A stretch of DNA of 64,000 bases. It comes from Hypanus sabinus (taxonomy: Eukaryota). The stretch covers positions 46,128,001-46,192,000 of the forward strand of contig NC_082725.1 in NCBI RefSeq assembly GCF_030144855.1. Reading direction: 5' to 3'. Below the pieces are notes generated by a model. The model ran no database searches. It saw nothing but the letters and a program-made list of their open reading frames with translations, and was not told the DNA's origin. The position numbers and the translations under genes were made by a program. Below are positions 4,006 to 64,000 of the stretch, piece after piece (position 1 is the stretch's first letter; every line of letters starts with the position of its first letter).

Positions 4006-4203
4006 TGTAGTGGAGTGCTACACGCAGCGCTAAAATTACGACACGGAGTCGGTAACTGCAGTCGAAGGAAAAAAAACTTTATTCGAAATCCTCAGCCTCA
4101 CTTTTAAGCCTCCCTCAAAGGCTCCAAATCTCTGTGCTTGCAAACCCCCGTAGGCTATCTAATTGTGAGCCGGTTCGGATGTGCCAGGAATTGGGTTGCC
4201 ACA
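4006..4203 (-). repeat. 3' LTR of CsRN1-like element (198 bp)
   Basis: Direct repeat with a 20-bp deletion relative to the 5' LTR; preceded on the minus strand by a G-rich PPT. Confidence 0.93.
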
Positions 4204-7200: not shown

Positions 7201-7255
7201 TATCCCGATGGCCAGCCGCCATAGCCATCAGCGGCGGCTGGCCCTGGCGTTTCCC
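4159..7255 (-). pseudogene. pol: Disrupted pol (PR DTGAEIS, RT YLDD, RNase H, HHCC/DDE integrase with GPF)
   Basis: Split over ORFs 7070-7438, 5469-7187, 5627-5908 and 4159-5520; frameshifts near 7085, 5935 and 5640; in-frame RT deletion ([10 protein letters not shown]). Confidence 0.9.
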
Positions 7256-7917
7256 GGGAACTTGCAGGGCGGGTGACAACGGCAGGCTTCTGCGCCCCAC
7301 CGCTGGTGGTAGAAGCACCAGTGTTCCTTGGGCTGGGGGTTGGCGGGCTCTGTGGCCGGGCCTGGACTGGTTTGCTGCTGGGAGCGTGGCTGGGAGATCT
7401 GTGCGATGGACGCCCCGCTCACCTTTTTGGCGTTCCACAGCAAGTCCGCCCGGGCTGCCACCTTCCGGGGGTCACTGAAATCCGCGTCGGACAGCAGCAG
7501 GCGTATGTCCTCGGGCAGCTGCTCCAGGAATGCCTGCTCAAACATGAGGCAGGGTGTGTGTCCGTCGGCGAGAGACAACATCTCATTCATTAAAGCCGAT
7601 TGAGGTCTGTCGCCCAAGCCATCCAGGTGCAGTAAACGGGCAGCCCGCTCGCGCCGTGAGAGTCCGAAAGTCCTGAGGAGCAGGGCTTTGAATTCCGTGT
7701 ACTTGCCGTCTGCCGGGGGCGACTGTACGAACTCCGCGACCTGGGCCGCTGTGTCCTGGTCGAGGGAGCTCACCACGTAGTAGTAGCGGGTGTCTTCTGA
7801 GGTGATCTGGCGAACTTGGAATTGGGCTTCGGCTTGCTGGAACCATAGGTCCGGGCGCTGTGTCCAGAAACCTGGCAGTTTCAACGAAACCGCATGAACA
7901 GAGGCGGCGTCGGTCAT
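7228..7917 (-). CDS. gag: Gag of CsRN1-like element
   Basis: MTDAASVHAVSLKLPGFW...CFYHQRWGAEACRCHPPC; open frame, CHCC motif. Confidence 0.85.
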   Translation of the reverse strand: MTDAASVHAVSLKLPGFWTQRPDLWFQQAEAQFQVRQITSEDTRYYYVVSSLDQDTAAQVAEFVQSPPADGKYTEFKALLLRTFGLSRRERAARLLHLDGLGDRPQSALMNEMLSLADGHTPCLMFEQAFLEQLPEDIRLLLSDADFSDPRKVAARADLLWNAKKVSGASIAQISQPRSQQQTSPGPATEPANPQPKEHWCFYHQRWGAEACRCHPPCKFPGNARASRR

Positions 7918-7942
7918 TTCTGGTCCAAAAATCGTTTGGACC

Positions 7943-7955
7943 GTCGGGGTCACCA
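7943..7955 (-). other. Primer-binding site TGGTGACCCCGAC (complementary to tRNA-Trp 3' end)
   Basis: Begins 2 nt after the 5' LTR; sequence typical of CsRN1-clade PBS. Confidence 0.85.
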
Positions 7956-7957
7956 AT

Positions 7958-8177
7958 TGTAGCGGTGTGCTACACGCAGTGCTAAAATTACGACACGGAA
8001 TCGGTAACTGCAGTTGAAGGAAAAAAAAAACTTTATTCGAAATCCTCAGCCTCACTTTTAAGCCTCCCTCAACCTGCCCCCCCGTGGCGCAGAGGCTTCA
8101 AAGCTCAGTGCTCGCAAACCCCCGTAGGCTATCTAATTGTGAGCCGGTTCGGATGTGCCAGGGAATGGGTCGCCACA
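7958..8177 (-). repeat. 5' LTR of CsRN1-like element (220 bp)
   Basis: Direct repeat of 4006-4203; adjacent to the PBS. Confidence 0.93.
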
Positions 8178-13025: not shown

Positions 13026-14760
13026 TTGAATAACTACTTTGGTTCTGTCTTCACTAAGGAGGACATAAATAATCTTCCAGAAATAGTAAGGGACCGAGGG
13101 TCTAGTGAGATGGAGGAACTGAGGGAAATACATGTTAGTAGGGAAGTGGTGTTAGGTAAATTGAAGGGATTAAAGGCAGATAAATCCCCAAGGCCAGATG
13201 GTCTGCATCCCAGAGTGCTTAAGGAAGTAGCCCAAGAAATAGTGGATGCATTAGTGATAATTTTTCAAAACTCCTTCAATTCTGGATTAGTTCCTGAGGA
13301 TTGGAGGGTGGCTAATGTAACCCCACTTTTTAAAAAAAGGGAGAGAGAAACCGGGGAATTATAGACCGGTGAGTCTGACATAGGTGGTGGGGAAAATGCT
13401 AGAGTCGGTTATCAAAGATGTGATAACAGTACGTTCGGAAAGAGGTGAAATCATCGGACAAAGTCAGCATGGATTTGTGAAAGGAAAATCATGTCTGACG
13501 AATCTTATAGAATTTTTTGAAGATGTAACTAGTAGAGTGGATAGGGGAGAGCCAGTGGATGTGGTATAATTTAGATTTTCAAAAGGCTTTTGACGAGGTC
13601 CCACATAGGAGATTAGTGTGCAAACTTAAAGCACTCAGTACTGGGGGTATGGTATTGATGTGGATAGAGAATTGGTTGGCAGTCAGGAAGCAAAGAGTGG
13701 GAGTAAACGGGACCTTTTCAGAATGGCAGGCAGTGACTAATGGGGTACCGCAAGGCTCAGTGCTGGGACCCCAGTTGTTTACAATATATATTAATGATTT
13801 AGACAAGGGAATTAAATGCAGCATCTCCAAGTTTGCGGATGACACGAAGCTGGGCAGTGGTGTTAGCTGTGAGGAAGATACTAAGAGGATGCAGGGTGAC
13901 TTGGATAGGTTAGGTGAGTGGGCAAATTCATGGCAGAGTCAATTTAATGTGGATAAATGTGAGGTTATCCACTTTGGTTGCAAGAAGAGGGAAACAGATT
14001 ATTATCTGAACGGTGGCCGATTAGGAAAAGGGGAGGTGCAACAAGACCTGGGTGTCATTGTACACCAGTCATTGAAGCTGGGCATGCAGGTACAGCAGGC
14101 GGTGAAAAAGGCAAATGGTATGTTGGCATTCATAGGAAAAGGAATTGAGTACCGGAGCAGGGAGGTTCTACTGCAGTTGTACAAGGCCTTGGTGAGACCG
14201 CACCTAGAGTATTGTGTGCAGTTTTGGTCCCCTAATCTGAGGAAAGACATTCTTGCCATAGAGGGAGTACAAAGAAGGTTCACCAGATTGATTCCTGGGA
14301 TGGCAGGACTTTCATATGAAGAAAGACTGGATCGACTAGGCTTATACTCACTGGAATTTAGAAGATTGAGGGGGGATCTTATTGAAACGTATAAAATTCT
14401 AAAGGTATTGGACAGGCTAGATGCAGGAAGATTGTTTCCGATGTTGGGGAAGTCCAGAACGAGGGGTCACAGTTTAGGGATAAAGGGGAAGCTTTTTAGG
14501 ACCGAGATGAGGAAAAACTTCTTCACACAGAGAGTGGTGAATCTGTGGAATTCTCTGCCACAGGAAACAGTTGAGGCAGGTTCATTGGCTATATTTAAGA
14601 GGAAGTTAGATGTGGGCCTTGTGGCTGAAGGGATCAGGGAGTATGGAGAGAAAGCAGGTACAGGGTTCTGAGTTGGAAGATCAGCCATGATCATACTGAA
14701 TGACGGTGCAGGCTCGAAGGGCCAAATGGCCTACTCCTGCACCTATTTTCTATGTTTCTA
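13026..14760 (+). mobile_element. Young 5'-truncated CR1 LINE (RT FADD), nested in an older CR1
   Basis: ORF 13559-14671 with [23 protein letters not shown]; 3' UTR ending in a TTCTATG-like microsatellite; few disruptions. Confidence 0.92.
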
Positions 14761-36794: not shown

Positions 36795-39030
36795 ATCAAT
36801 AGACAATAGGTGCAGAAGTAGACCATTCGGCCCTTCGAGCCTGCACTGCCATTTTGAGATCATGGCTGATCATCTATCAATACCCGGTTCCTGCCTTGTC
36901 CCCATATCCCTTGATTCCCCTATCCATAAGATACCTATCTAGCTCCTTCTTGAAAGCATCCAGAGAATTGGCCTCCACTGCCTTCCAAGGCAGTGCACTT
37001 CAGACCCCCACAACTCTCTGGGAGAAGAAGTTTTTCCTTAACTCTGTCCTAAATGACCTACCTCTTATTCTCAAACCATGCCCTCTGGTACTGGACTCTC
37101 CCAGCATCTGGAACATATTTCCTGCCTCTATCTTGTCCAATCCCTTAATAATCTTATATGTTTCAATCAGATCCCCTCTCAATCTCAATTCCAGCATGTA
37201 CAAGCCCAGTTTCTCTAACCTCTCTGTGTAAGACAGTCCGGACATCCCAGGAATTAACCTTGTGAATCTACGCTGCACTTCCTCTACAGCCAGGATGTCC
37301 TTCCTTAACCCTGGAGACCAAAACTGTACACAATACTCCAGATGCGGTCTCACCAGGGCCCTGTACAAATGCAAAAGAATTTCCTTGCTCTTGTACTCAA
37401 TTCCCTTTGTAATAAAGGCCAACATTCCATTAGCCTTCTTCACTGCCTGCTGCACTTGCTCATTCACCTTCAGTGACTGGTGAACAAGTACTCCTAGATC
37501 TTTGTATTTCTCCCTTACCTAACTTTACTCCACTCAAATAATCTGCCTTCCTGTTCTTACTCCCAAAGTGGATAACCTCACACTTATTCACATTAAACAT
37601 TATCTGCCCACTCACCCAGACTATCCAAGTCACCCTGTATTCTCCTATCATCCTCATCACATGTCACACTGCCACCCAGCTGTATCATCAGCAAATTTGC
37701 TGATGTTATTCTCAATGCCTTCATCTAAATCGTTGATGTAAATCGTAAACAGCTGTGGTCCCAATACCGAGCCCTGTGGCACCCCACTAGTCACCACTGC
37801 CATTCAGAGAAACACCCATTCACCGTTATCCTTTGCTTTCTATCTGCCAACCAGTTTTCTATCCATGTCAATATCTTCCCCCCAATGACATGAGCTCTGA
37901 TTTTACCCACCAATCTCCTATGTGGGACCTTATCAAATGCCTTCTGAAAATAAAGGTACACTACATCCACTGGATCTCCCTTGTCTAAATTCCTCGTTAC
38001 ATCCTCAAAACTCCAATAGATTAGTCAAGCATGATTTACCCTTGGTAAATCCATGCTGCCTCGGCCCAATCCTATCACTGCTATCTAGATATGCCACTAC
38101 TTCATCTTTAATGATGGACTCCAGCATCTTCCCCACTACTGATGTTAGGCTGACAGGTCGATAGTTCTGTTTTCTCCCTCCCTCTTTTCTTAAAAAGTGG
38201 GATAACATTAGCCATTCTCCAATCCTCAGGAACTGATCCTGAATCTAAGGAACATTGGAAAATGATTACTAATGCATCCGCAATTTCCAGGGCCACCTCC
38301 TTTAGTACCCTAGGATGCAGACCATCTGGACCTGGGGATTTGTCAGCCTTCAGTCCCATCAGTCTGCTCATCACCGTTTCCTTCCCAACATCAATCTGTT
38401 TCATTTCCTCTGTTACCCTATGTCCTTGGCCCATCCATACATCTGAGATTGCTTGTCTTCCTTAGTGAAGACAGATCTAAAGTACTTAAATTCTTCTGCC
38501 ATTTCTGTTTCCCATAACAATTTCACCCACTTCATTCTTCAAGGGCCCAACATTGTTCTTAACTATCTTCTTTCTCTTCACATACCTAAAAAAGCTTTTG
38601 CTATCCTCCTTTATATTCCTGGCTAGCTTGCATTTGTACCTCATTTTTTCTCCCTGTATTGCCTTTTTAGTTAAGTTCTGTTCCTTAAAAATTTCCCAAT
38701 CATCTGTCCTCCTACTCACCTTAGCTCTGTCATACTTTTTTTTATATAATGCTATGCAATCTCTGACTTCCTTTGTCAACCACTGTGGCCCCTTTCCCCC
38801 CTTTGAATCCTTCCTTCTCTGGGGGGGATGAACTGATTTTGCACCTTGTGCATTATTCCCAAGAATACCTGCCATTGCTGTTCCACTGTCTTTTCTGCTA
38901 GGATATCCGTCCAGTTAACTTTGGTCAGCTCCTCCCTCATAGCTCCATAGTCCCTTTTGTTCAACTGCAACACTGACACCTCTGAGCTGCCCTTATCCTT
39001 CTCAAATTGCAGATAAAAACTTATATTATG
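36795..39030 (-). mobile_element. 5'-truncated CR1 LINE filling the GMNN intron between coding exons 4 and 5
   Basis: KSPGPDGLHPRVLKE, QHGFTKGKSCLTNL, LVRPHLEYCVQFW and a CR1 3' UTR; same orientation as GMNN. Confidence 0.92.
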
Positions 39031-44816: not shown

Positions 44817-46289
44817 TGTTAGACCTAGTGAAGGCAAAAGGGAATTGAAGATGAAATTCAAATAGCCCATTTAAACAGTAAAGTAGTATCCTAATAGCCT
44901 TCAATCTACATGTTAAAAGTTTTTCACCCTTTATCATAAAGCATACATTTGGATTTCAGACCTTGTAATGAGATACTAAATTTTCAGCTTCCAGACCAAC
45001 CCATCCTCATACTCCTTACCACTGTAGCTCATTTCCTAAGCTTCAGAAAGTTATACCAAGTGGAACTTCAATACTGAAACTTGAGTTAAATGAATGGTTA
45101 ATCTGAACTAAGACTGTTTTAAAAAAATTATAGGGCTGTTTTTAAAGTATAAAAATGTGCATACCATGAAAAAGAATTCCATACTGTTCATAGATTTTGT
45201 TATCAATCTATTTCCAAACACCTCCAATTAAAAAGGTACTCAAGAAATTTACAACTGCTTCCTCAAGTCCAGGTTATAAAAGTAAATGGAACATTTTCAG
45301 AACACTGCAGTGGTTTTCTTTCTGGTAAAGAACTTGCTTTGCCCACATATTGTTCAAAATTAAGGCCGAATAATCACTTTCCAAACAGTTTTACACCTTT
45401 AAGACCCTTCAAGAATGTGGTGCAGTGGATTCTAACACCATTTTACTGGTGCTCAGACCAGCATTTCAACTACAACAGATGGAAGGTTGCCTTGAACAAT
45501 CACAAACCAGGTAGGTACCAGTGATTAAAATTGTATCAACAGATTCATCAAAATTGAGCACAAGTTACTGTTTTTCAAGAAATGACTCAGGCTGAAATGT
45601 CACACTGATCACAGAAATTAAGAGATAAAGACATGACAGTATACTGCTTAGATTGAATAGTTTTGTACGTCAACGCATTACCAGCTGCACTCGTACAAAT
45701 TGTGACTGAAAACATCTCTCAAATTTGATTTTTTTTAAAAACCCAGAGTAATGTTCTGTATTAATATCTCAGCTTCATATAGCTTTACATAGAAACTTCG
45801 TTTGGAGGGAAACTGCTTCATTAGGAGAGAACAAAGAAACAGCAGCAGCAAGCATCCTACACTAACTACAACCTATTCTAAGCTGGGACAAAACAAAAAT
45901 TATTCATGGAAATTTCAAATATCACCAAATTGACAACTTCAGTGCATTAGGAGATATAATGAAATCGTCAAATAGATACACTTCACTAGAGCCAATAATT
46001 CTAGAAGCATCGAGGTTCAGATTACGATTCCCTTTCTGGCATCCTTCAACACAACTACAGTACCTCCATTCAAAACCCATCCAATTCAAACATCTAACTG
46101 TATACCGACAGTGATGTAGACAAGACTAACTACGACCAAACAATGCAGCAGCATTAAATCGTGCTAGTTGGACCCAAAGGCAATTACAGGCACAAACGTG
46201 GCGATGCGTGCAAGCCGGAGATCTGTTTGGTGGATGCCCACTAGGTCGGACGTAATTAGAGTCCTTTACAATCTAATACGTCGCAAGGC

Positions 46290-46810
46290 TTACATAACGA
46301 GAGGCCAGCCCTCGCCCACCACCACGGCGCGGTCGGGATCAGACAGACCCGCCGCCGGGCCCGGGACCTGGCCGGGGAGAAGGCACTGACCGCCCTCACT
46401 CCCTTTCCACCGCTGAAGGAGCTCCCCAGCAGCCACTCGCCACCCCACCACCGTGTGTCAGACCACAGGACTCACCGAGCGGCGCCTTCACGCTACAGAG
46501 CAATTCTTGCCGCCTTCGGCTCGAGCTTAAAATATCCCCTGGTCACGTGACCCCGCGCTGGGAGGCGGGGCCCGGCGCCGAGCATTGTGGGTGGAAGGGT
46601 AAAAAAAAATCTGCTTTTCCTAAATCCGCCCTGGCTCTCAGCCGCACGTCCCTCACAAAGGTGCAAGAGCGTACGCGCTTTAAATGTTCGACACAGAAGA
46701 AGAAAAACAAGCGGCGGGGAAAGGCGGCAGGTTACGCGAGAGTGACGCAAGCGATCGCGCGTACAATTTAAACCGAGTGAGGCCGGCGGAAATGTTTGCG
46801 CATGCGCGGT
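46290..46810 (-). promoter_or_regulatory. GMNN: GMNN CpG-island promoter and non-coding exon 1 (donor G|GTGAGT at 46476/46475)
   Basis: CpG-rich; E-box palindrome GGTCACGTGACC 46541-52, GC box GGGAGGCGGGGC, E2F-like GGCGGGGAAA, NRF1 TGCGCATGCGC 46797-807. Confidence 0.8.
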
Positions 46811-48939
46811 GTGAAAAGCTGCCCCTTTGCAGCGTTGGAGTGATAACTTCGGTGTTTCTTTTGCTGCTTTCCATCTCTGCTCATGTGCATTTAAATGCAC
46901 AGAATGGTGTACGCAAGAAATAAATTGACTTCTATAGCAACGCACACAAGATACTGGAGGAACTCAGCAGGCCAGACAGCATCTATGGGAGGAGGAGACC
47001 ACCTTCGGGAGTTACATGCCAACTACATTACTGGTGTTGGTTTTCGAGTCAGCTGCTACCTTTGCAGCTGAGTCTTGCCCAGTTCTGGAAAGAGTGAGGA
47101 ATGGGACCCACAGCGTTTGTCAATTACAGATATAAATGTCAGTGATTGATTTTAGTCCAAAGTTTATTCAGCGTATAAGTTGAAAGGGTTGGGGCAGAAC
47201 GAAGAAAAACCCGTTTTTTTCTTTATTCTAAGAACTAGTTCTCTCATTCGTATACATCTGGAAGGTCTTGGCCCGAAACGTCGACTAATTATCGATTTTC
47301 TTAGATGCTGTCTGAGTTCCTCCAGCGTTTTTTAAGTTTTATTCTTGCCATATCCACCTCGGAGAAGTGTCCCCCCCCCCATTACATAAATAAACTGTTG
47401 GAGAATGACTCTTGATATCTTGTTTTTGTGCTTCACTTTGTGTTTTCTTGAAAATATTGGAAAATAGATGTTGTAAGTATGTTATTGCACCTGTGTATAC
47501 GTATAGTTCTATATGTTATAAATATTGCTTTGACTTTGCTGATCAGCAAAAACATGATGAGTCGTTTTAACTTTTTTTGGTAAATATGATCCCTGGAGGT
47601 ACTTGGACTTGCGCTTTGGCCATTTTTGAGCCTACTTAATGTTCAAGACGTCTGCCATCTGCTGTTCTTTATTGGAGAATTGGATGTTTTCTTGTGTGTC
47701 ACATTGTTGGTAGTCCTGATTTGTGAACCTTGAAACTGAGCAGGTTAGTGAGAAAGTGGACTGAGATATTTCAAAACTTTAAGAAAGATGCTATTTATTG
47801 ATGGGACTGTACTTGCTGTTATGTGTGCAAGGGCCAAAACAAACTTTGCCTTTGGGAAAAGCTTTCTACTCTGAATTTCATTTTTTTTTCTAGAATGCTT
47901 TTTTGAAGCTGATGGATTGCTAATTGGTTTGCCAAAAAAGCAGCTTCTTGTCATTAGCTACCAAGTAACAAAGTAAACTCCTTCACTCCTGCTTCAGTGG
48001 ATAAACTCCAGGAATTTGCTCTCTCTCCTCCACAGTGGGAACAGCATAGCGATTAATTCAGATGAACAGGTCGCCAGTTGGCTTTTACTGCTCAAGCAGA
48101 AAGACATTTTCTTTACTGTGCTTCCTCTGTAAGATGAGCAAGAATTGGCGCAGTGCCAGCTTCGGGCTCCATCTGTCGGGGAAGCCCTGTTAGGTTAAGG
48201 CTAAGAATCCATTTAGAGAACAATCGAGGACGATGTCTTGACAATTTTCTGAGCACCAGTTTACAAATTTTACCCTATCAGCATTAACTACATTGTAGTC
48301 ACAATCTGTATGGTTTGCTTAGGTACCTGGATTCAGTGAAAGCAGAACAGTGTTCCAACCCAGATCAGCATTCAAGGTGTTATTTGCACCACTTTAATGA
48401 CTTTGCAATACCTTGAAGGATGATTGACAAGCTGCATAACAACTGGAGCATGTGTAGCAGAGATGTGCGGTATGAGATACTGGGTTAAAGTCTTGTATTG
48501 GTTAACTGCTCGAGGAAATGAGTGCTTTTGTATACAGATAACATTCACAGCATGTCGAATGGTGTTGCTTATCTGCTGAAAGCCCCTCAACACTGAGTTT
48601 AAATATATAAATAATGGGCTTGAGGTTATGGGAGCTCTGGGACCGCGTATTGTGTGAGTCAATAGCTGCCGGATTTTTTTTCATTAGTGTGCTTGGAAGA
48701 CCATTAGCTGCTTCTGGGTGGACACTGGCTTGAGAGGGACACAGACTTACAGCACCCCAGCAATGGAGTAGCTGGGTTGATTGTGTCAAGTAAAACAGAT
48801 AAGATTTGGAAAACTAATGAATAAGCTGAATGGGTGGATTTGGCATCCACTGGCATATGTCTGGCAGCTTCAGGAGGGCAGTTGCAATGTCATCATGGAG
48901 ATAATTAGGTTGTCAGAGTTCAATGTCAAACTAAAGGCA

Positions 48940-51225: not shown

Positions 51226-51503
51226 CTACTTCTGCCAGCCAGCAGCAGCAAGAGAAACCAGTCAAATGCAGGTAGATGGCATTAAGCTCCCTGTTCATTT
51301 TCGCTTCTTGTCCTCGACAATTTTAATCTTGGTCAACGCTTTACTTGGAGCAGAGCAATGGGTTCGACCACGGGTTCATGTTCCGCCATTAGGAATCGAC
51401 ACAGAATTGCACCCATGTCGAATGCCCCAGGATATCACAGAAGTGCCAGATAGTTCAGTTGGCTCAAAAATTCATTCTTGGAAGCAAAATTACAGGCTGC
51501 AAT

Positions 51504-51715
51504 TGTGGTGAACTATGTGCCTGTCGGGACACGCCCCTGCTGACTGCTCCTGTGGCTCCTCCCACAGGCCCCTGTATAAAGGAGACCTGCGGCCTGAAGA
51601 TCGGCCTCAGTCTCCAGGACCTTGTATGATAGACACTCACTCCTGGTTCCTTCTTCCAGTCAATAAAAGCCGATATCTCGCCTACGTCTCAGTGTGAGTT
51701 ATTGATGGTGCATCA
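51504..51715 (+). repeat. 5' LTR (TATAAA 51575, AATAAA 51662)
   Basis: Base-for-base identical to 54199-54410 on manual comparison. Confidence 0.95.
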
Positions 51716-51744
51716 ATTTTATTGACTGGAAGAACCTTCGCTAC

Positions 51745-54153
51745 ATGAGGAGCAGGAGGTACAGCGCGGGGGACCGGGCCTTCATTCAGTCGGAGGTGCA
51801 GCGGCTGCTCAGGGAGGGGATCATTGAGCCGAGCACAAGCCCTTGGAGGGCCCAGGTGGTTGTTGTTCGGACTGGGCAGAAAAATAGGATGGTGGTGGAC
51901 TATAGTCAAACCATCAATAGGTTTACGCAGCTTGACGCATACCCCCTACCCCGCATCGCGGATATGGTCAACCAGATTGCTCAGTATAAGGTGTACTCGA
52001 CAATAGATCTGAAATCCGCTTATCACCAGCTCCCCATCTGCCCAGAGGACCGCCCCTACACCGCCTTCGAGGCGGGCGGCCGGCTCTATCACTTCCTGCG
52101 CGTCCCTTTCGGTGTCACGAATGGTGTCTCTGTCTTCCAGAGGGAAATGGACCGGATGGTGGACCAGTACCAACTGCAGGCCACATTTCCCTATCTGGAT
52201 AACATCACCATCTGTGGTCATGACAGGCCAGATCACGACGCCAACCTCCAACGGTTTCTCCAAGTGGCCGCAGCTCTGAACCTTACTTATAACAGGGACA
52301 AGTGTGTGTTTGGTACCACCCGTCTTGCTATACTTGGGTATGTCGTGGAAAACGGGGTTATTGGCCCTGATCCCGAACGTATGCGCCCCCTGTTAGAGCT
52401 CCCTCTTCCCACCACTCTCAAGGCCCTCAGACGGTGCCTGGGGTTTTTTTCCTATTACGCCCAATGGGTCCCCCATTACGCAGACAAGGCCTGCCCCCTG
52501 GACAAGTCTACCTCGTTTCCCCTCTCTGCTGAGGCCTGCGCGGCCTTCAACTGCATTAAAGCGGACATTGCCAAAGCTACGATGCATGCAGTGGACGAGA
52601 CCGCTCCCTTCCAAGTGGAGTGTGATGCCTCCGATTTCGCTCTGGCTGCTACCCTTAATCAGGAAGGCAGACCAGTAGCATTCTTTTCTCGCACCCTCCA
52701 AGGCTCTGAAATTCGGCACTCCGCGGTGGAGAAAGAAGCCCAGGCCATAGTGGAGGCTGTTAGGCACTGGAAGCACTATCTTGCTGGCAAAAGATTCACT
52801 GTGCTGACCGACCAGCGCTCGGTTGCGTTCCTGTTCAGCAACCAACAGCGGGGCAAGATCAAAAATGATAAGATTTTGCGGTGGAGGATAGAACTCTCCA
52901 CCTACACCTATGATATCCTGTACCGGCCTGGCAGACTCAATGAGCCCCCTGATGCCCTATCCCGGGGAACATGTGCTAGCACACAGCTCGACCAGCTGTA
53001 CGCCCTTCATGCACAACTTTGCCATCCGGGGGTCACCCGATTTTACCATTTTGTGAAAGCTCGGAACCTGCCGTACTCCCTGGAGGACATCAGGACGATG
53101 ACCAGGGACTGCCAAATTTGTGCCGAGTGCAAACCGCACTTCTACTGTCCTGACACGGCACAACTTGTCAAGGCCACCCGCCCTTTTGAACGCCTGAGTG
53201 TTGACTTTAAGGGCCCCCTTCCCTCCACTGACCGCAATGTCTATTTTCTCAGTGTTATTGACGAGTTCTCACGGTTCCCCTTTGCCATCCCCTGCCCCGA
53301 CACCACTGCCACGTCCGTCATAAAAGCCCTGCGCCAGCTCTTCACTCTGTTCGGGTATCCCTGCTATATCCACAGTGATAGAGGGTCCTCCTTTATGAGT
53401 GAGGAGCTGCGCCAGTACTTGCTAGCTAGGGGCATTGCTACCAGTCGGACCACGAGTTATAATCCCCGGGGTAATGGCCAGGTAGAGCGGGAGAATGCCA
53501 CAGTGTGGAAGGCCACACTTTTAGCCCTCAAGTCCAAAGGGTTGCCGGTCTCTCGATGGCAGGAGGTCCTCCCTGAGGCACTGCACTCTATCCGCTCTCT
53601 GTTATGTACGTCCACCAATGCCACCCCTCACGAACGCCTATTCTCTTTTCCCAGGAAGTCTGTCACTGGGACCACCCTACCAGTTTGGCTGACGTCCCCG
53701 GGGCCAGTGCTGCTCCGGAAACATGTGAGGAGCAATAAATACTCCCCGCTGGTGGAGAGGGTTCACCTTCTCCATGCGAACCCCCAGTATGCTTACGTGG
53801 TCTTACCTGATGGGCGGGAGGACACGGTCTCCATCCGCGACCTGGCACCCGCAGGTGCAGCAGACCACTACCCTGAAGGCTCTCCGGTAACTGTGAACCC
53901 TGCACCAGAGGTGACACCGTACTCACCAGGCCCTACACAGACTCCTCACGACACTTGTATACCGGGCGTTTCGTACGCATTTATACCAGGCGCCTCGCAC
54001 ATGCATGAGGGATCACCGGCGCCTAGTGGGCAAGAACACGCGCAACCCCCGTCCCCTGTGCAATCGCCAATGTTGCCGGCACCTATGCGGTCACAGCCGG
54101 TGCTACGTAGATCGCAGCGACAGATTCGACCGCCTGATCGGCTTGACTTGTAA
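51745..54153 (+). CDS. pol: Uninterrupted RT-RNaseH-integrase ORF (802 aa)
   Basis: RMVVDY, YPLP, DLKSAYHQ, PFGV, YLDN; RNase H CDAS...EKE...TDQ; HHCC; D(FKG)...D(RG)...E(REN). Confidence 0.9.
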   Translation: MRSRRYSAGDRAFIQSEVQRLLREGIIEPSTSPWRAQVVVVRTGQKNRMVVDYSQTINRFTQLDAYPLPRIADMVNQIAQYKVYSTIDLKSAYHQLPICPEDRPYTAFEAGGRLYHFLRVPFGVTNGVSVFQREMDRMVDQYQLQATFPYLDNITICGHDRPDHDANLQRFLQVAAALNLTYNRDKCVFGTTRLAILGYVVENGVIGPDPERMRPLLELPLPTTLKALRRCLGFFSYYAQWVPHYADKACPLDKSTSFPLSAEACAAFNCIKADIAKATMHAVDETAPFQVECDASDFALAATLNQEGRPVAFFSRTLQGSEIRHSAVEKEAQAIVEAVRHWKHYLAGKRFTVLTDQRSVAFLFSNQQRGKIKNDKILRWRIELSTYTYDILYRPGRLNEPPDALSRGTCASTQLDQLYALHAQLCHPGVTRFYHFVKARNLPYSLEDIRTMTRDCQICAECKPHFYCPDTAQLVKATRPFERLSVDFKGPLPSTDRNVYFLSVIDEFSRFPFAIPCPDTTATSVIKALRQLFTLFGYPCYIHSDRGSSFMSEELRQYLLARGIATSRTTSYNPRGNGQVERENATVWKATLLALKSKGLPVSRWQEVLPEALHSIRSLLCTSTNATPHERLFSFPRKSVTGTTLPVWLTSPGPVLLRKHVRSNKYSPLVERVHLLHANPQYAYVVLPDGREDTVSIRDLAPAGAADHYPEGSPVTVNPAPEVTPYSPGPTQTPHDTCIPGVSYAFIPGASHMHEGSPAPSGQEHAQPPSPVQSPMLPAPMRSQPVLRRSQRQIRPPDRLDL

Positions 54154-54198
54154 GAACCTTCGCTACATGAGGACTTTTTCAAACGAAGGGGGGGTGAA

Positions 54199-54410
54199 TG
54201 TGGTGAACTATGTGCCTGTCGGGACACGCCCCTGCTGACTGCTCCTGTGGCTCCTCCCACAGGCCCCTGTATAAAGGAGACCTGCGGCCTGAAGATCGGC
54301 CTCAGTCTCCAGGACCTTGTATGATAGACACTCACTCCTGGTTCCTTCTTCCAGTCAATAAAAGCCGATATCTCGCCTACGTCTCAGTGTGAGTTATTGA
54401 TGGTGCATCA
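54199..54410 (+). repeat. 3' LTR
   Basis: Identical to the 5' LTR; followed by the TSD. Confidence 0.95.
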
Positions 54411-54999
54411 GCAATTAATCGTGGCTCAGAAGAAGTACATTTGGCAGAAGAGTATTCCGTATAATTGCAGGCTGTCTGCAAGATGTTGCATTTGGTCATT
54501 GGTGCCATTTTGTTGAAAGTCTTGCTTGTATTACATTATTTGAATTTAACTGAACGTACCTTCAGCTGAATTCTGCTATAAATATTTTTTAAAGCTGTTA
54601 ACTCGGTCTATTATGAAATTAAAAGGAAAATTTTATATCACACAATTTTAGAAAGAATTTTGTGTTTTTTTTTCAAGTCTAAGGTCCAGTATAATTCATG
54701 TACCTGAAATGAAATTCCCAAGTAATTATATCTATTGATTAACCAGTAAATCTGGGAGGGATTCCTTTTTGTATATTTATTTGAACAGCCAAAACTAAGT
54801 TAAACATCTCTTTACAATTGAATGGGAATAACTATGCTTTACTCTCCTATACACTTCCTTGAACAACTCATAAAATATTTTATTTTAATAATGAGATGTT
54901 TCCAACAAAATATTTTTTAAAAACCTGAACATCTGCAGTAAAACCTGCCTCAGAAAGTTAAAAGGGTATATGTACATGGGGGTGGGGCGTTGGGTCAGA

Positions 55000-55530
55000 G
55001 GGAATGGACCACGTGATGAGGGGTGACGTACACAAACATGTTTACATAGTTTGAAAGTAAGCTAGAATTTGAAAAAAAAAGTAAATGAGTTGGTTAAGGG
55101 CATAGAAATGGTCACCGAGGTGCAAGGTGCCGGTTTAAAGAGAATCTAGCGGAGCTGTGTTTTTGAGGGGGATGGGTGGGTTGTGACGTCGAGCAGCCAT
55201 CTTGCGCTGGTGTGGCGGCGGCGGGGGCGCGGGTGATCTTTGCTGTCGTCTGACGGGAGGGCAGAGAGCCGAGCGCTGGCCCGGTCTGACACGCCGAGAG
55301 TTAGCGGGAGCAGCCGACCTTGTGCGAGGGGCAGTGAGGGAGCGAGAGCGGAGGCAGGCAGGCGGGCAGGCGGCAGTACTCGGGCCAGAGGCCGTGGTTT
55401 TGTGCGGTTTTCTCACGCCAGGAGCTCGCTTTAAGACTATGGGTGACCTAGAGCGCAGAGAGCGCGGCTCGCTCACACTGACGGGTTTGACCGGGTTTGT
55501 GGTCTCTTCTTGACATGGGCGGGGAGTGAC
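55000..55530 (+). promoter_or_regulatory. C6orf62: C6orf62 CpG-island promoter and probable non-coding first exon
   Basis: CpG-rich; CRE-like TGACGTC 55184-90, YY1 motif GCAGCCATCTTG 55193-204, E-box CACGTG near 55010. Confidence 0.75.
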
Positions 55531-56484
55531 AGTCAGCGTTAGTTTGCAATATATATATACGTTATATATATGTTCAATACAAACAGCTTAGGAAAGGAGT
55601 TACGGTAGAAAACCAAAACAATCAAAAGGCGGCACAGCAGGAGCTCCCAACAGTTAAGCCTGTGAGCAGATCTATAGAGGCAAACATGATAAACAAGTGA
55701 TTTTTTTTTTGTTTTCTTTGTGTAGGGCGATGTCAGGAAACCGGTTAAAGGTTTACCACCATGTTGTTAATTGAAACCAAGTCTTTGGTGAAGTCAGAAA
55801 TGCCCTTTGCTTGGTATTTTGTTTGTTTCTACCCATGTGCCAATGAGCCGTGTCATGTAGTTGATGTGCCAGTGCAATCCTCTTTGTCTTTTATTGTCTG
55901 TCCTTAAAGCAAAAACTAAAAAGGAAAAAAATATACTGTCACCTACTCCAATATGTTTGAAGACAACTGTGCCAGAGGCTGCAGGTAAACTTATCAGGCT
56001 TTTTTTTTGTGTAAAAAGGCAAAAATCTGGCCTGTATGTAAACATGGGATCTGGCTGCATCATTTCTGTGTCATCCTTGGGCACACCTGAATCTCAGTTA
56101 GGTGTTTAATTTGTTGGTTAGATCCATTGGTATCCATCATTGTAATCTAGTTTTAGTTCAGCAGGTTAAAATTTATCTCTAATTTGGATTGCTTTGGTTT
56201 GTAAGTTTTGTTAATGTGAATTAAAAGTGAATTTAGTTCCCTGCACTCTGATGTGACCGTGTATATATAGGGACTGTTATCATGACTGGACTCTGGCCAA
56301 CATTTATCCTAAGTTTTTGCACAACACAGTTTTAGAGCTTCTGGACTAGTAGTTGTGGTAGTTTTTTTCAGTTAGTGCTACCAGACATGTTCTGTTGTGC
56401 TGTTTTCTTTTGAGAGAAATTGCCCATGTTAGATTTTGTCACTTTGTCATAAGCTAAAAAGAGGGTTAACACACTCAAAACAAA

Positions 56485-56613
56485 ATGGGTGACCCACACT
56501 CTCGGAAGAACCAGACTTTAAATCGACTGCGTGCTCAACTTAGAAAGAAGAAAGAATCTCTGGCAGATCAGTTTGATTTCAAAATGTACATTGCCTTTGT
56601 ATTCAAAGATAAG
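56485..56613 (+). CDS. C6orf62: C6orf62 coding exon 1
   Basis: [43 protein letters not shown] then gtaaga; near-identical to the human C6orf62 N-terminus. Confidence 0.96.
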
Positions 56614-57291
56614 GTAAGATATTACCTTTCTTGGCATATTTGTCAAAGGTGAAATGTAGAATGCTTTCTTCACTAGTTGTGGGACGAGAAGCTGCTTTAT
56701 AGGATATTTACAGGGCAGTCCCTAGATAACTGTAATTGACGTACTTTGAAGCATTTACATTGGCAGAAGTTCATTTAGGCTTCAAAGCAACGGTCATGAT
56801 AAAGAACATTGATCTACCTACCTACTGCCCATTGCGCCACTGGCGTTTAGCGCAGCAATGAGGGTCCTTCATCTGTGGTGGCGTTCAGGGCTGCCTTCAT
56901 TGTGTCAGTAGCTCAGTTTTCACAGTCATGCAAGTTCAGGATAGAGACTCTGGAATACCATCGCACTCAGATGTGGAAGGTTTCTTCATTGCTGTTTCCA
57001 TAACAGTTTTGTTGTAGCAGTCAGGGTTATTAGCCCTGAAGTGAACCCGGAGGACTGGTGGACCACTCTTAGTCCAGCTTCTATTGTTTGACCTGTTTGG
57101 CATGGGTGACCCTACCAAGAGCCAAAGCATAAAACCCTGACTCAGCCAGCATAGCTCTCTGGGTCATTGAGGCACACAGGCCTTCAAACTACTTCAAGAT
57201 TGTGGTCCTCTTGAGAGGAAAGAACATTGAAGACAGTAGGAAAACTAGCAGGGATTGACAGAAAGGAGGAGAGCAGGAACTTATAGTGGAT

Positions 57292-57710
57292 CACAAACAT
57301 GAGAAAATCTGCAGGTGCTGGAAATCCAAAGCGCAAAACACAAAATACTGGAGGAACTCCGCAGGTTGTAGAGAAAACAGTCAACTTTTCAGGCCGCTAC
57401 CCTTCTTCGGGACTGGGGGTGTGGGGGCAGGGGAAAGAGGCTGGCTGGAAGGTGATAGGTGAAGCCAAGTGGGTGGGAAAGGCCAAGGACTGGAGAAGAC
57501 AGAATCTGATAGGAGAGGAGAATGGACCGTACGAGAAAGAGGAGGAGGAGGGACCCCTGGAGAAAGTAATAGGTGAGAAGTAGTACAAGGTCAGAGTTGA
57601 GAATGGGGAGGGGGAATTTTGTTCACCTTTTGAAGAAATCAATATTCATACCATCAGGTTGTAGGATACTCAGAATATAAGGTGTTGTTCCTCCACCCTG
57701 AGGGTGGGTT
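57292..57710 (-). mobile_element. Penelope-like element 3' fragment in C6orf62 intron 1
   Basis: Minus-strand QPDGMNIDF; same 3' UTR family as 42230-42745. Confidence 0.7.
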
Positions 57711-60097
57711 GTAGTTGGTCAGATTAGCTGAATAGAAAAGTGGCAAGTAGAATCCCTGATCCCTGAAGAGATGTACCTATGGAACTGCAACAAGAGGATG
57801 GGATGACATTCAGGTGTGGAGGAGTAGTGATCTTTGGGATGCGTGTCCTTAGTTAAAGGTAGTTGGGATGCTTTTCTTTCGGTCAGACATAGAACAGCTG
57901 GCAGGGATACTAGAACTGAGGATTTAGTACTGTTGACAGTTCTGGTTCAAACAATGTGGGAAATGTGTTTACACTGGAGAGAGTGATAAGATTTGTAAAG
58001 TTGTTGCCAGGAGTGGAAACCTGTTGCCAACAGGGGAAGATTAGGTAGGTTGGGGTTATTTTTTTCATCAGTGTAGAGGCTAAGGAGAGACTAAAAGATG
58101 TGAAATTGACAGCTTTGGATAGGTGAATAGAAGGTACCTAAATATACCCCTCACTAAAGAGGCAAAACCCGAAATCTCAAATTTAAACCTAGAATAATCC
58201 TGGAGGAGTGTTGTTGGACTTGCATTTGTCTCGCATGTGGAGAGTATTCCATCACATTACTGGCTTCCGTGAAAGGCCTTGGGTGTCAGTAAAGTCATTC
58301 ACTGCAGGATACCCAGCACAGCCACGAAGGGCTAAATGGCCTCCATTTGTTTTAATTCTATGCTGTTCTGATATGGACAGACTTTCCTGGAAAGCTGAGA
58401 AAATAACTACTGTGATTGTCTCTTTATCATAAGATCAAGGGTTATACAGAATTTCTTAATCACTTTGGAAACTGAGCTTAATATGACACACATGATAGTT
58501 ACAGTTAACCCATCCACAGATCCTCACTCTGCTTCCTTCAGATTATTTTGGGATTTGCACTGTCATTTGACTGGGATATGAAGGCTTATTTGCTTTATCT
58601 TTACAATAAGTGGGGTAAAATGTCAGCTTGTCCACAGAATATTTGCTTAAAGTGTAAATAACTACCATGATTAATCCCACCCCAGTGAAACTCTGTTAAT
58701 CCAGTTTGTGTAGGGCTCTGGTGTTGGGCAAGCAAATTTTCTGGACTATCAGATACTATACACCTTCACACTTCTAGTTCTTTTTCTGATGTTATGCAGT
58801 GGAATAATAAGTTTTCCAATGTACCGAGCGAGTTTAAAATTAATGCTTGAAATGGAACTAGATGTTTCAAAGCGCTGTGGGACCTTGGGCCCTGCTGAGT
58901 TCCAAGTGTGAATTGAATTTCTGAATGACCGAAGATTTACTCTATTATCTACCTTTGAACTGAATTTTTCTTGTCCCTCATTTCAATATCCCTTTAGTCA
59001 TTTGGTTGCTAATTAATATGACATTCCGCAGTATATACTAAAACTTAACAGACGCTTCAAAGTGAGACCAAGAACACAAGCTGTTGTATCTGGAATAATT
59101 TTATTCAACCTCTTCATGCTACTTGGTTAAAGTGAAATGCATTTGAGCATGTGAACAGTATGAAAAATGAATATTATTGATCAGTTGGTTTCATTCAAAT
59201 TTTCTTTGCAATTTTTTACTATTGTCCAAATCACTTTCACAACATCGCTCACTTCTGCTTGCTGCCTATATCTGTGGTTGACAGTGTTTTCATGGGGATT
59301 TCAGGGAAAGGAGAATGGGGAATATACTGATTGGATTGTACTCTTACAGGCAGCATTTGATTAGGTATCTGCTCCCTTGAAAATTTAATCTAAATAGTGA
59401 GTCAAAGGTCACATCAGAATTTTTAGTAGACATCTGTAGGTAGTTGGAAATGAAGGCAACTTAAGCAATATGGGAATAGAAAATAGGCACTTGATAACAG
59501 GAGGGTAGGGTAACCTAATATTGGCTAGTTGAGTTAGGAGACATATTCCTCCTTCCTCAAAACAATGCTTGATTAATTGTTACTTTTCAATTACCTTAAT
59601 CACAGTTGACTGTCTCCTGATAATGAAATTTGGATTGTTTTTCAAGGTGACTTGTTTATATTCATGCTTGTGTGATTATAGTTTTAGTAAAACTTATTCA
59701 AATTTGTGAGAACATGATTTCTGCTTAAGAATTTAATAATTTTGTTTCTTAAGTTTTGTTTAAGTTGAATTTTAAAAGAATTTCTTGCTTTGATATTTTT
59801 CTTTGTACGTTTCAGATTTTCCCCCAACATTTTAGAAATTTCACTTCAGAAATTACTGTCCTGTACATAATAGGCACAGAGTGTATAGTCCCTGTTCATA
59901 CTGTCCTGTGAAGTGAATAGCTTATATTTTTAAATTCAACTTGCAGTCCTTTCCAAACAGAGCTATTGTGTGTCACTGAATCAAAATATTTTAAATCTAT
60001 TTTGAAAAATGCAACTTGACAGTAATAATTTAAAAGAAATAGCATAGATAGAAAATGTTTTATGTTAAGAATTATGATTCTGATATTATGATTTAAG

Positions 60098-60274
60098 AAG
60101 AAAAAGTCGGCACTATTCGAAGTGGCTGAAGTGGTACCAGTTATGACCAATAACTATGAAGAAAATATCCTCAAAGGTGTACGGGAGTCCAGCTACTCCC
60201 TGGACAGTTCCACAGAGCTGCTGCAGAAGGATGTAGTGCAGCTTCATGCACCACGCTACCAATCCATGCGCAGG
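60098..60274 (+). CDS. C6orf62: C6orf62 coding exon 2
   Basis: [30 protein letters not shown]...[10 protein letters not shown] then gtaagt, 177 nt. Confidence 0.95.
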
Positions 60275-61447
60275 GTAAGTACTTCACTAGAATTATATAA
60301 GTTAAAGTTTGCTTGTTCTTGGAATGATGCAGAGTGGTAGAATATGTCACATCAAAATGTTCAATTACTAACAGCAACTTCCTTTATCTTAAGAGGGAAA
60401 AAGGTTTGTATTTGCTTTACATAACCATTTTTTCCACAATGGTCACAGCCAAAACAACCATTGATACTCTTCAACGCTGTAAACGCTGGAAGTAATAAAA
60501 TACTCAAAAGGTCTGGCAACATTTAGAGTAGTGGGAGCTAGAAACAGTTTCAGGTCAAAGTTCCTCAGTCAGAAGTATTAATTCCCATGCACGTAATTAT
60601 TTATTGGCTTAAATATAAAACTGATTTTGATATGCTAAGGTCTTTTGATTTGTACTAATATGGAATCGTTTTGCTTAAGGCTGATCATTTTTCTTCTGAT
60701 TGGTTTTTTCCATTTACTGATCAGCATTGTGTTAACTTAATTTGGCGATGCCAGTGGTTTTTTGCACTCCCTTCAATTTTAACTGAAAAGCTGACTACTT
60801 GCCTTTGAGCTTATGATCTAATGTATCTTTTAAGATGGAGCTTCTAATGTGATAATTGGTTTGGTAATGATTCATAGATTTGAAATATTCTACTTAAAGA
60901 TAAATCAACTCGTTTAAATATTTTGATGTAATATATTTAGATTCTCTTCTATATGTCATTTCAAATTATTGTAAATGTTGCTTTATTGATTAGTTTTTAA
61001 AACTGTTTGGATATGCCTATTTAATTGTGAGAAGGCAATATGGAAAAGCTGGTTCCATGGCTGAAGATGTAAGGCAACAAAGAAATCTGGCTGTGGTAGA
61101 TATGATCGTCTGCAGGGATCAATTTATCCTAATTAATGCAAATACTCTTTTGTGGTTTAATGCTTTTAAAAGTTCTTGTTATTTTCTTACAATGCTATAT
61201 TAGACTGGCATTGAAAGACGACGATTTTAGTTATTCAGAACGAAGGGTAAGTATGGAAACTGGAGGTGGTTGTTAGCAATTCACATTCTTTTGACTTCTA
61301 GCCTTGTACTATAATGCCTTGTAACTCTTGATCCACAACCAAAATTATCATTTTTAGTAAAATTATAATCTTTGTTTTTGCATTTCTTGATATGGAATCC
61401 ATTCAATATCTCTATTGGAATTTCTCTCATTGCCTGACCTATTTTAG

Positions 61448-61573
61448 GATGTAATTGGCTGTACACAGGAGATGGACTTTATCCTTTGGCCACGGAATGA
61501 TATAGAGAAGATGGTCTGTCTCCTTTTCTCCAAGTGGAAGGGTACAGATGGTGAGCCTTTCAGGCCTGTTCAG
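61448..61573 (+). CDS. C6orf62: C6orf62 coding exon 3
   Basis: [42 protein letters not shown], 126 nt, AG/GT flanked. Confidence 0.96.
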
Positions 61574-62781
61574 GTACTGCTTGTACATAAACATGAGCCA
61601 AACTTTTGGATGCCGATCACAATTGATTTGACTTGCAGTTTGCCTAGCTTGTTGACAGTTTTTGTGTTGGATGATTTTTCTGTATCTTTGGTTTTGTTCA
61701 GACGTTATATATTTATAGTTTGACATTGTAATTCTTAGTATATGGGTTTCATTTCCGTTGTCTCTCAGTTATCTGTGTAATGACAAATCTTGATAGACTT
61801 TGTTCTTTTATGGATACCTTGTTTCTTACTTTTCCCTCTAGCGATCTTAACATCGTGTTAGATTCACATTTGTAGTGCATCACCAAAGCAGCATAAAAGT
61901 AGAAACTCAATGGGCTTGGCAAACTGCAAATCAAATCAACTGTGATAAGTATACTGTCAACATTAGCACAGTAATGGTGGTTGTCTGTCATGTGCAGTGA
62001 TGACAGGAGACCTTTCAAAGTGGATAGGCCATTGCACTGGGGCAGTTCCTCTCTTGACCCCGGTACAGTGGTAAAAACAAGTGTCACAAACTGGGGTCTT
62101 CCTTGGTTGCAGTGGATGACCGTGGCGTCTTCTGTGCCTTGTCATGCTCTTTGCTCTCCACTGAGCATTGCAGAACTGTAGATCTCATCTGCCCAGTCAG
62201 CTGGAGCTGACTTAGCATGCTAGGATAGGCATGTCTCTATCTCACCGGGTTTGAGGCCCGCTGGCTACCCTCACCCTTGCCTGTTGAAGTGGTGTGGCCA
62301 CTATCGCATGCAGACAGCTACTTGGAACCGCAGGTGGGAGCTGAGCTTCTGGTGGGGACCGAAAATGAGTGAGCTGCCCCAGAATGGACACGACAAGCCC
62401 CTTCACCAGAGCTTTACCCCTCCCTGGACACCCAATACACATCAAGCACAGTAATTAAAGGGGTTATTTATGCATAAGCCTTAATAAACCAGAAGCATTT
62501 TGTTTGCCTGTGGTACTTCAAAACCAAGCTTAGCCCTTTGGTTGTCTTGAGTCCACAAGCACTTATAATGAAGATGTTGGGTTGAGACCAATAGCAGGGG
62601 TCCTGTCAGATCTTAGCAGAATTACCAAGGCCAATTATAAAATCTATGCATCTAATAAACCTAAAAGGAATAAAATTAGATCTTTCTGATCTTGGCAAAT
62701 AATTTTTGAGTACTTGCTGAACATGAAATTAAGCAACAATTCTTGTTTTCTAATATTTTAAAGTGCTTACTGTTTATGCAG

Positions 62782-62916
62782 GCCAAGTTTGAGTTTCATC
62801 ATGGCGATTATGAGAAACAGTTTCTGCACTTAATTAGCCGGAAGGATAAGGCAGGACTCATCGTAAACAACCCTACCCAGTCCATCTTTCTGTTCATTAA
62901 TCGTCAGCACTTGCAG
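62782..62916 (+). CDS. C6orf62: C6orf62 coding exon 4 (final exon lies beyond the window)
   Basis: [45 protein letters not shown] then gtga, 135 nt. Confidence 0.96.
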
Positions 62917-64000
62917 GTGAATATAATTGTGGGCCTTTATTTTCCTAAACTTACTTGGTCCCATCTTCTGTTTGGGTGAAGAAATGTGGAACATTGCCAG
63001 TGGTTTTAATACCGGTGAAATTTGGCATGATTCTTTTTCCCTTTCTTGCTACTAACTTAATAATGCTTTGTGTTCTTGAAATAAGTCTTTGTGAACTGTG
63101 CACTGCTATATACAGTGATTTTTTTTTTGGTTCTCTGCATGACTGCCTACAAATCTTGCTGGAGTAACTTTTAGGACCATTACAAGGCAGTTTAAATTTT
63201 AAAGTTATTTGATTGATTTGAGTTATTGTATGTTATGAAAATCTGCAGGATACAGATTTTCTCGTATGGAAATAATTATTGCTTTGTAAACTCATTGTTT
63301 GATGAGCTCAAAATTTTTGAAATGAATCTAGTTATAACTTTGGGTCTTAAATACGTACTGAAGTCCTGAACTTAACTCCATAACATTGGGGTTGGAAAAT
63401 AAAATCAATATTATTTGCTTTGTCCACCATATTGACATCAGGCAAGATGAGATTAAGTCTGTTGTAATCTCCTTAACAGGTAACATGGCATGTTACCAAA
63501 AATGCAAATTTCACCCTTGGGAGATTTTGCTGTTTATAGCCAGAGTAGTCAGTCAAGCCATTAACTTAGAGTGACATTTATAGAGGCAGTGTCTGGTGTG
63601 AAACATGTAACTGACATATCTGTGGGATGTTGCGAACTGAAAACAACTGGAGCCTCAGTGTTGGGAATGTTGGCTTGGAAGTGAATGCTGACCTAAGATT
63701 GTTGAGGGTCCAGTGAACTTGGAAATTTTGCTTAGAGTGGCTTAAAATGCTTCCTGTAGATAACCAGATCTTCGGAAATGGAGAGCAGATGTCACAGCTG
63801 TCTGGCCAATTGTGAGGTTTGTTTCAGATCTGTGATCTTGATCTTGAAGAAAAGGTCTTGCCTTGAATCTTCGTTGTTGGGAGGGGGAGTACCTTGGAGC
63901 AGGGCAGGTAGGTAGAGCTTCTAGGTGTTGAAGATATTGAGTACAAGTACCATCCTTGTGCTTTGGTGAATAAATCAATGATGTAGCTTAGCTGCAGGTG

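Follow-up and report, generated by a model that had tools for sequence, protein, structure and literature searches.

The window, that is the whole 64-kb stretch of DNA analysed, contains a young Ty3/gypsy LTR retrotransposon of 2,907 nt (51504-54410) with a frame of 802 amino acids (Table 1). About 0.6 kb separates it from a downstream region (55001-62922) with a CpG island and, on the strand of the element, a DUF4566 gene, four exons of which match PF15130 and which we take to be C6orf62. A second CpG island is found at 46001-47000. The window also holds a second gypsy element on the minus strand (4006-8177), with LTRs about 85% alike, a DUF7041 gag, and reverse transcriptase (RT) and integrase in separate frames, as well as decayed copies of a LINE-type RT at 13031-14753 and 36799-38488.

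Table 1. Features of the retrotransposon, with positions in the window.
Feature	Position	Strand
Target-site duplication, left copy, 5 nt (GCAAT)	51499..51503	+
5' LTR, 212 nt, TG...CA ends, no difference from 3' LTR	51504..51715	+
LTR stretch across the AATAAA signal, pairs with the primer site (candidate self-primer)	51651..51668	+
Position of the primer site; repeats 51651-51668 in inverted form over 18 nt; native to at least 51732	51717..51734	+
22-nt copy of the element's own tail, of which 16-19 nt are patch past the shared letters; ATG at 51745	51730..51751	+
802-aa frame: RT (conserved start clipped), RNase H, integrase; without gag and protease	51745..54153	+
Site at the pol stop codon that resembles the primer site; probable target of the first jump	54143..54156	+
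22-mer in the tail, the native copy, across stop codon and 3' UTR	54152..54173	+
Polypurine tract ahead of the 3' LTR	54186..54198	+
3' LTR	54199..54410	+
Target-site duplication, right copy, 5 nt	54411..54415	+

The paired TG...CA LTRs, the target duplication and the purine tract place the element in Ty3/gypsy, as do the domain order RT, RNase H, integrase and the nearest solved structure, which is that of Ty3. Integration was normal, as is shown by LTRs without differences and a perfect target duplication; since the LTRs are intact, the faulty product described below was inserted in the usual way. Scans for tRNA and Rfam matches returned none. The literature on Smaug, Barthez/Cigr and MolGy supplied no clade name, nor did the available portions of PMC3601003, PMC6934838 and PMC3670739, and the element is not described in the literature searched, a scope that leaves most subscription journals and Repbase outside. 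The RT motif at 52192-52203 (residues 150-153) reads YLDN, not YxDD. Among 121 proteins the fourth place of this motif is Asn in 86 and Asp in 23, with 12 unmatched, and we read YLDN from these counts as a trait of the clade rather than as decay. A literature search on the motif returned nothing relevant.

The first-pass annotation of this DNA proposed that gag and protease had been lost from the element, and the comparison with its relatives agrees. A domain search of the frame found no match to gag or protease, the two parts an autonomous Ty3/gypsy element would hold. The pol match begins 30 nt past the LTR, whereas relatives that have clean LTR pairs mostly show 1.2-1.4 kb in between. The proteins nearest to the 802-aa frame come from the stingray Hypanus sabinus (98-99% identity), which makes this species or a near relation the likely host. 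The joint falls at residue 525 in one long stingray protein and at residue 491 in another, which puts the missing gag-protease part at about 1.5-1.6 kb.

A perfect direct repeat of 22 nt, AAGAACCTTCGCTACATGAGGA, brackets pol at 51730-51751 and 54152-54173, just as the annotation had it. None of 100 shuffles matched it, and with up to 3 mismatches allowed it is absent from the rest of the window. The first copy carries the ATG that opens the frame and the second overlaps the TAA stop codon by 2 letters. Two features had escaped the annotation: the copies stay alike upstream (51722-51751 against 54143-54173, 29 of 31 positions with one mismatch and one gap), and the stretch 51717-51734 is a perfect inverted copy of LTR letters.

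The tail copy is the native one. Two stingray gene models, P0019 and P0175, read the 3' ends of sister copies in another frame, and both carry a diverged form of the 22-mer there. To judge the leader copy we used 85 related loci from metagenome and MAG contigs, 33 of them with a repeat pair around pol and 26 with a callable LTR end; these are distant relatives (39-66% protein identity), and a few of the repeat calls are partial. In all 26 loci the longest word common to the leader and the last 80 nt before the 3' repeat measures 4-7 nt, compared with 22 nt in the window. The exact leader pattern occurred in none of the metagenome contigs, viral contigs held no relatives, and no ray protein was found that crosses the leader in another frame. 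Six of the related contigs (L080-L085) are from bacterial MAGs and encode an animal-type retrotransposon, which is likely host contamination.

Contigs from four public runs, possibly of other species and with a leader possibly of a sister subfamily, give a closer comparison. Among the contig ends listed, seven from two studies (four from run X1, two from X2 and one from X5) match the window to 51732 and then diverge, showing an ATG nine letters further along. At the pol side, five X1 contigs depart from the window upstream of 51751 and their match starts at 51751. The codon after the window ATG is another pointer to a patch: it encodes arginine, found at the second position in 0 of 44 ray gag starts, and lysine stands in its place in all seven stingray proteins that span the pol site (66 proteins compared). 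Since the arginine codon fits neither gag nor pol but only the tail, the most plausible reading of the leader copy is a patch templated by the tail, in line with what had been proposed. The gap is thus filled from elsewhere in the same element, as in a deletion with templated insertion. Runs X1, X2 and X5 also contain joints between the regions 52828-52861 and 51683-51715, from 52828 to 51683 and/or from 51715 to about 52850. These may reflect a 35-nt piece of the LTR end in place of about 21 nt of pol, perhaps another templated patch in this family.

The primer site pairs with the element's own LTR over 18 nt, and the region folds with z = -3.05. Complementarity of this kind extends over 11-19 nt in 22 of the 26 related loci, while shuffled leaders pair with the LTR over about 6 nt on average. 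The pairing letters vary between families, and among 156 combinations across families, with arms chosen by best match, none paired at 11 of 11. Pairing in the relatives begins at leader position 2 (3-4 in three loci), the paired LTR segment mostly terminates in TAAA or AAAA, and a small GCCT/ACCT...AGG hairpin follows most paired segments. According to parts of PMC3187697, the plus-strand strong-stop DNA includes a copy of the primer and anneals at the primer site, which would put its 3' end at or near the left joint.

This left joint is the end of the self-pairing segment. Three letters (AAG) are shared there in three runs, or five (AAGAA) if the parent had two more, and the last two letters of AAGAA also lengthen the pairing with the LTR. 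The longer, imperfect likeness lies 5' of the joint, so it is usable by a plus-strand (sense) jump and not by the minus strand. The template of the patch ends 12 nt before the purine tract and the look-alike site lies 12-40 nt before it. At the pol joint the annotation had called an AGGA microhomology, which does not hold: the lysine codon of all seven stingray proteins leaves an overlap of 1-2 nt, and the match of X1 starts at 51751, which together rule AGGA out. The second jump had no homology in either direction and is uninformative on the strand.

We scored 2,419 internal positions as landing sites for the end of the leader. If the leader is taken to end at 51734, the pol stop site comes out on top (19 vs 16), a result that may be circular, as two of its letters may be tail-derived. 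For a leader ending at 51732 it comes second (15 vs 16), and the site that beats it holds one change particular to the window copy. If the primer copy had the 11 nt of Tf1, a site within the integrase gene would lead with 14 and the stop site would follow with 12; the product keeps five further leader letters, so a short correct extension would have been needed first.

On these data, RT template switching is the likeliest cause of the gag-protease loss, as the annotation had suggested, and a patch made by RT along one of three routes (plus strand, miniature or minus strand) is very probable. The route we favour, and which may well be the right one, is a single reverse-transcription cycle that went wrong through two jumps of the plus strand. 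The plus-strand strong-stop DNA would have annealed by its primer-site end to the look-alike at the pol stop codon and not to the true primer site. After extending along the tail for 17-19 nt, RT would have made a second jump, with 1-2 letters in common, to the beginning of the RT region, where a minus strand had perhaps stopped, and then finished, with the ATG carried along by accident. We infer the strand, the order of the jumps and the completion within one cycle, this single-cycle RT origin from the positions of the joints only.

The same structure could have arisen in two steps. A first deletion that joined the primer site to its look-alike would give a TRIM-like miniature of an LTR, about 61 nt and an LTR, and in a later cycle the minus strand would switch once from full-length RNA to the miniature RNA. 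This needs just one jump per cycle, yields the exact structure of the window and uses a look-alike site that is built in; in addition, LTR depth is far above internal depth in all four runs. However, the expected joint 51751 to 54174 is not among the 15 joints listed of 23, and the tail bin 54121-54215 is no deeper than the coding bins, in runs that may come from other species. We consider this two-step origin rather unlikely.

Another route is a double jump of the minus strand through AAGAA and AGGA, the microhomologies that the annotation had suggested. The 3-5 letters shared at the left joint would serve such a jump, and retroviral recombination is mostly a minus-strand affair according to the title of a cited paper. 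Nevertheless, AGGA is unavailable at the pol joint, the longer likeness is on the side that the minus strand cannot use, and the route requires a backward jump along the RNA, so that we regard it as unlikely. Repair after integration has a similarly small chance of being right. Here a chromosomal break would have removed gag and protease and a host polymerase would have filled in the templated patch. Low-homology templated insertions are typical of end-joining, which supports this origin, and three residues private to this copy suggest that it has spent some time in the genome. Against it, a distance of 2.4 kb separates the template from the right break end, and the left joint at the end of the primer site and the template at the purine tract are both landmarks of reverse transcription.

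It is quite improbable that the ATG is that of a native gag, from a subfamily whose leader naturally resembles its tail, fused to pol by a simple deletion. The position of the ATG, 29 nt past the LTR, would suit this, being within the gag-start range of relatives (16-47 nt, 21 loci). But a native identity of 18 nt would be required, which none of the 26 loci shows, as would an extra change, the next codon suiting neither gag nor pol. An assembly artefact, finally, is extremely improbable: no contig piece crosses the joint among the 32 of 20,376 listed, yet the pol side offers nothing repeated to an assembler (1-2 nt overlap) and the LTRs and target duplication are clean.

The preferred double jump of the plus strand leaves the question of whether the patch created a new translatable unit, as the annotation had claimed. 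One part of this claim stands: the ATG is in frame and the frame is fully open. Such an outcome is common by chance, as 4,348 of 23,219 possible pairs of patch and landing site (19%) give an open in-frame ATG, and 33% do so among patches that include the ATG. With T at -3 and A at +4 it has a poor start context, and upstream of it a short frame opens at 51705. A search of public runs listed no RNA run with the sequence, an outcome that has no bearing on expression. Ahead of the joint the RT has lost some 25 residues, a conserved stretch that is present in 30 of 34 aligned relatives and of which 11 positions align to the solved RT 8r0s. At residues 250, 253 and 343 the frame is unlike all nine near-identical stingray proteins compared. 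No other protein among those compared begins like the 802-aa frame, none points to a second copy of the same form, and the exact protein was not in the protein collection among the 15 of 29 cluster members listed. Judging by sequence, the frame is probably not a working gene and its start codon was probably supplied by accident; lack of function is what we infer.

The C-terminus of the integrase, RPPDRLDL (54127-54150), mirrors the N-terminus LRPDRLDL of Gag in relatives. A pattern common to both, picked post hoc, occurs at the N-terminus in 62 of 85 cases and at the C-terminus in 49 of 85 (shuffles: mean 4, maximum 12), and it is a possible capsid-docking motif. That the patch made a Pol-only helper, with its new ATG at the place of a gag start, which would dock through this Gag-like integrase tail onto the particles of full-length copies, strikes us as highly improbable; if true, a split of Pol from Gag like that of foamy viruses would have arisen in one step. 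The element would gain larger significance only if its Pol-only frame were translated, spread or selected. As it stands, we regard it as the fossil of a single error of reverse transcription. The plus-strand strong-stop DNA of this putatively self-priming clade may end at the left joint, which would be informative about the length of the primer, and from the built-in look-alike site one would predict a hot spot for the formation of miniature derivatives.

Several known systems share parts of this picture. Like TRIMs, as far as parts of PMC6934838 describe them, the element is a non-autonomous derivative whose terminal repeats are short, at about 210 nt. TRIMs have a short non-coding interior and measure under 1 kb, in contrast to the 2,907 nt of the element, its internal part of 2.5 kb and a pol that is nearly all kept; it is therefore not one of them. 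Foamy viruses make Pol from its own start codon, separate from Gag. The pol frame here likewise has its own ATG; it differs from a foamy-like Pol in being without protease and in the clipped start of its RT.

The primer site resembles that of the Tf1/sushi group. Tf1, Tf2 and Tj1 have a primer site complementary to their own LTR, as stated in parts of PMC7175516 and PMC4600332, and so does the element, many of whose relatives also hold gag, protease and pol in one long frame. In the element and its relatives the pairing differs by extending over 11-19 nt across the poly(A) signal. At the integrase end no chromodomain, the mark of chromoviruses, was matched in Pfam at E<=0.001.

The errors themselves are known from retroviruses. 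Pulsinelli and Temin (1991) reportedly traced deletions in retroviral vectors to plus-strand-transfer errors that begin at the end of the primer site. The deletion in the window likewise starts at the end of the primer site, with the differences that this site pairs with the element's own LTR and that a second jump follows. Pathak and Temin (1990) are said to have described deletions with insertions made through RT template switching. Parts of PMC3187697 and PMC5086612 name these as an outcome of such switching, and the element shares with them a large deletion, a short stretch of its own genome in the gap and an otherwise normal insertion. It is set apart by being a natural insertion of an animal gypsy element, by a patch with an in-frame ATG and by a left joint at a self-pairing primer site. 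Overall, it looks like an ordinary one-off broken copy that belongs to a known class of RT error.
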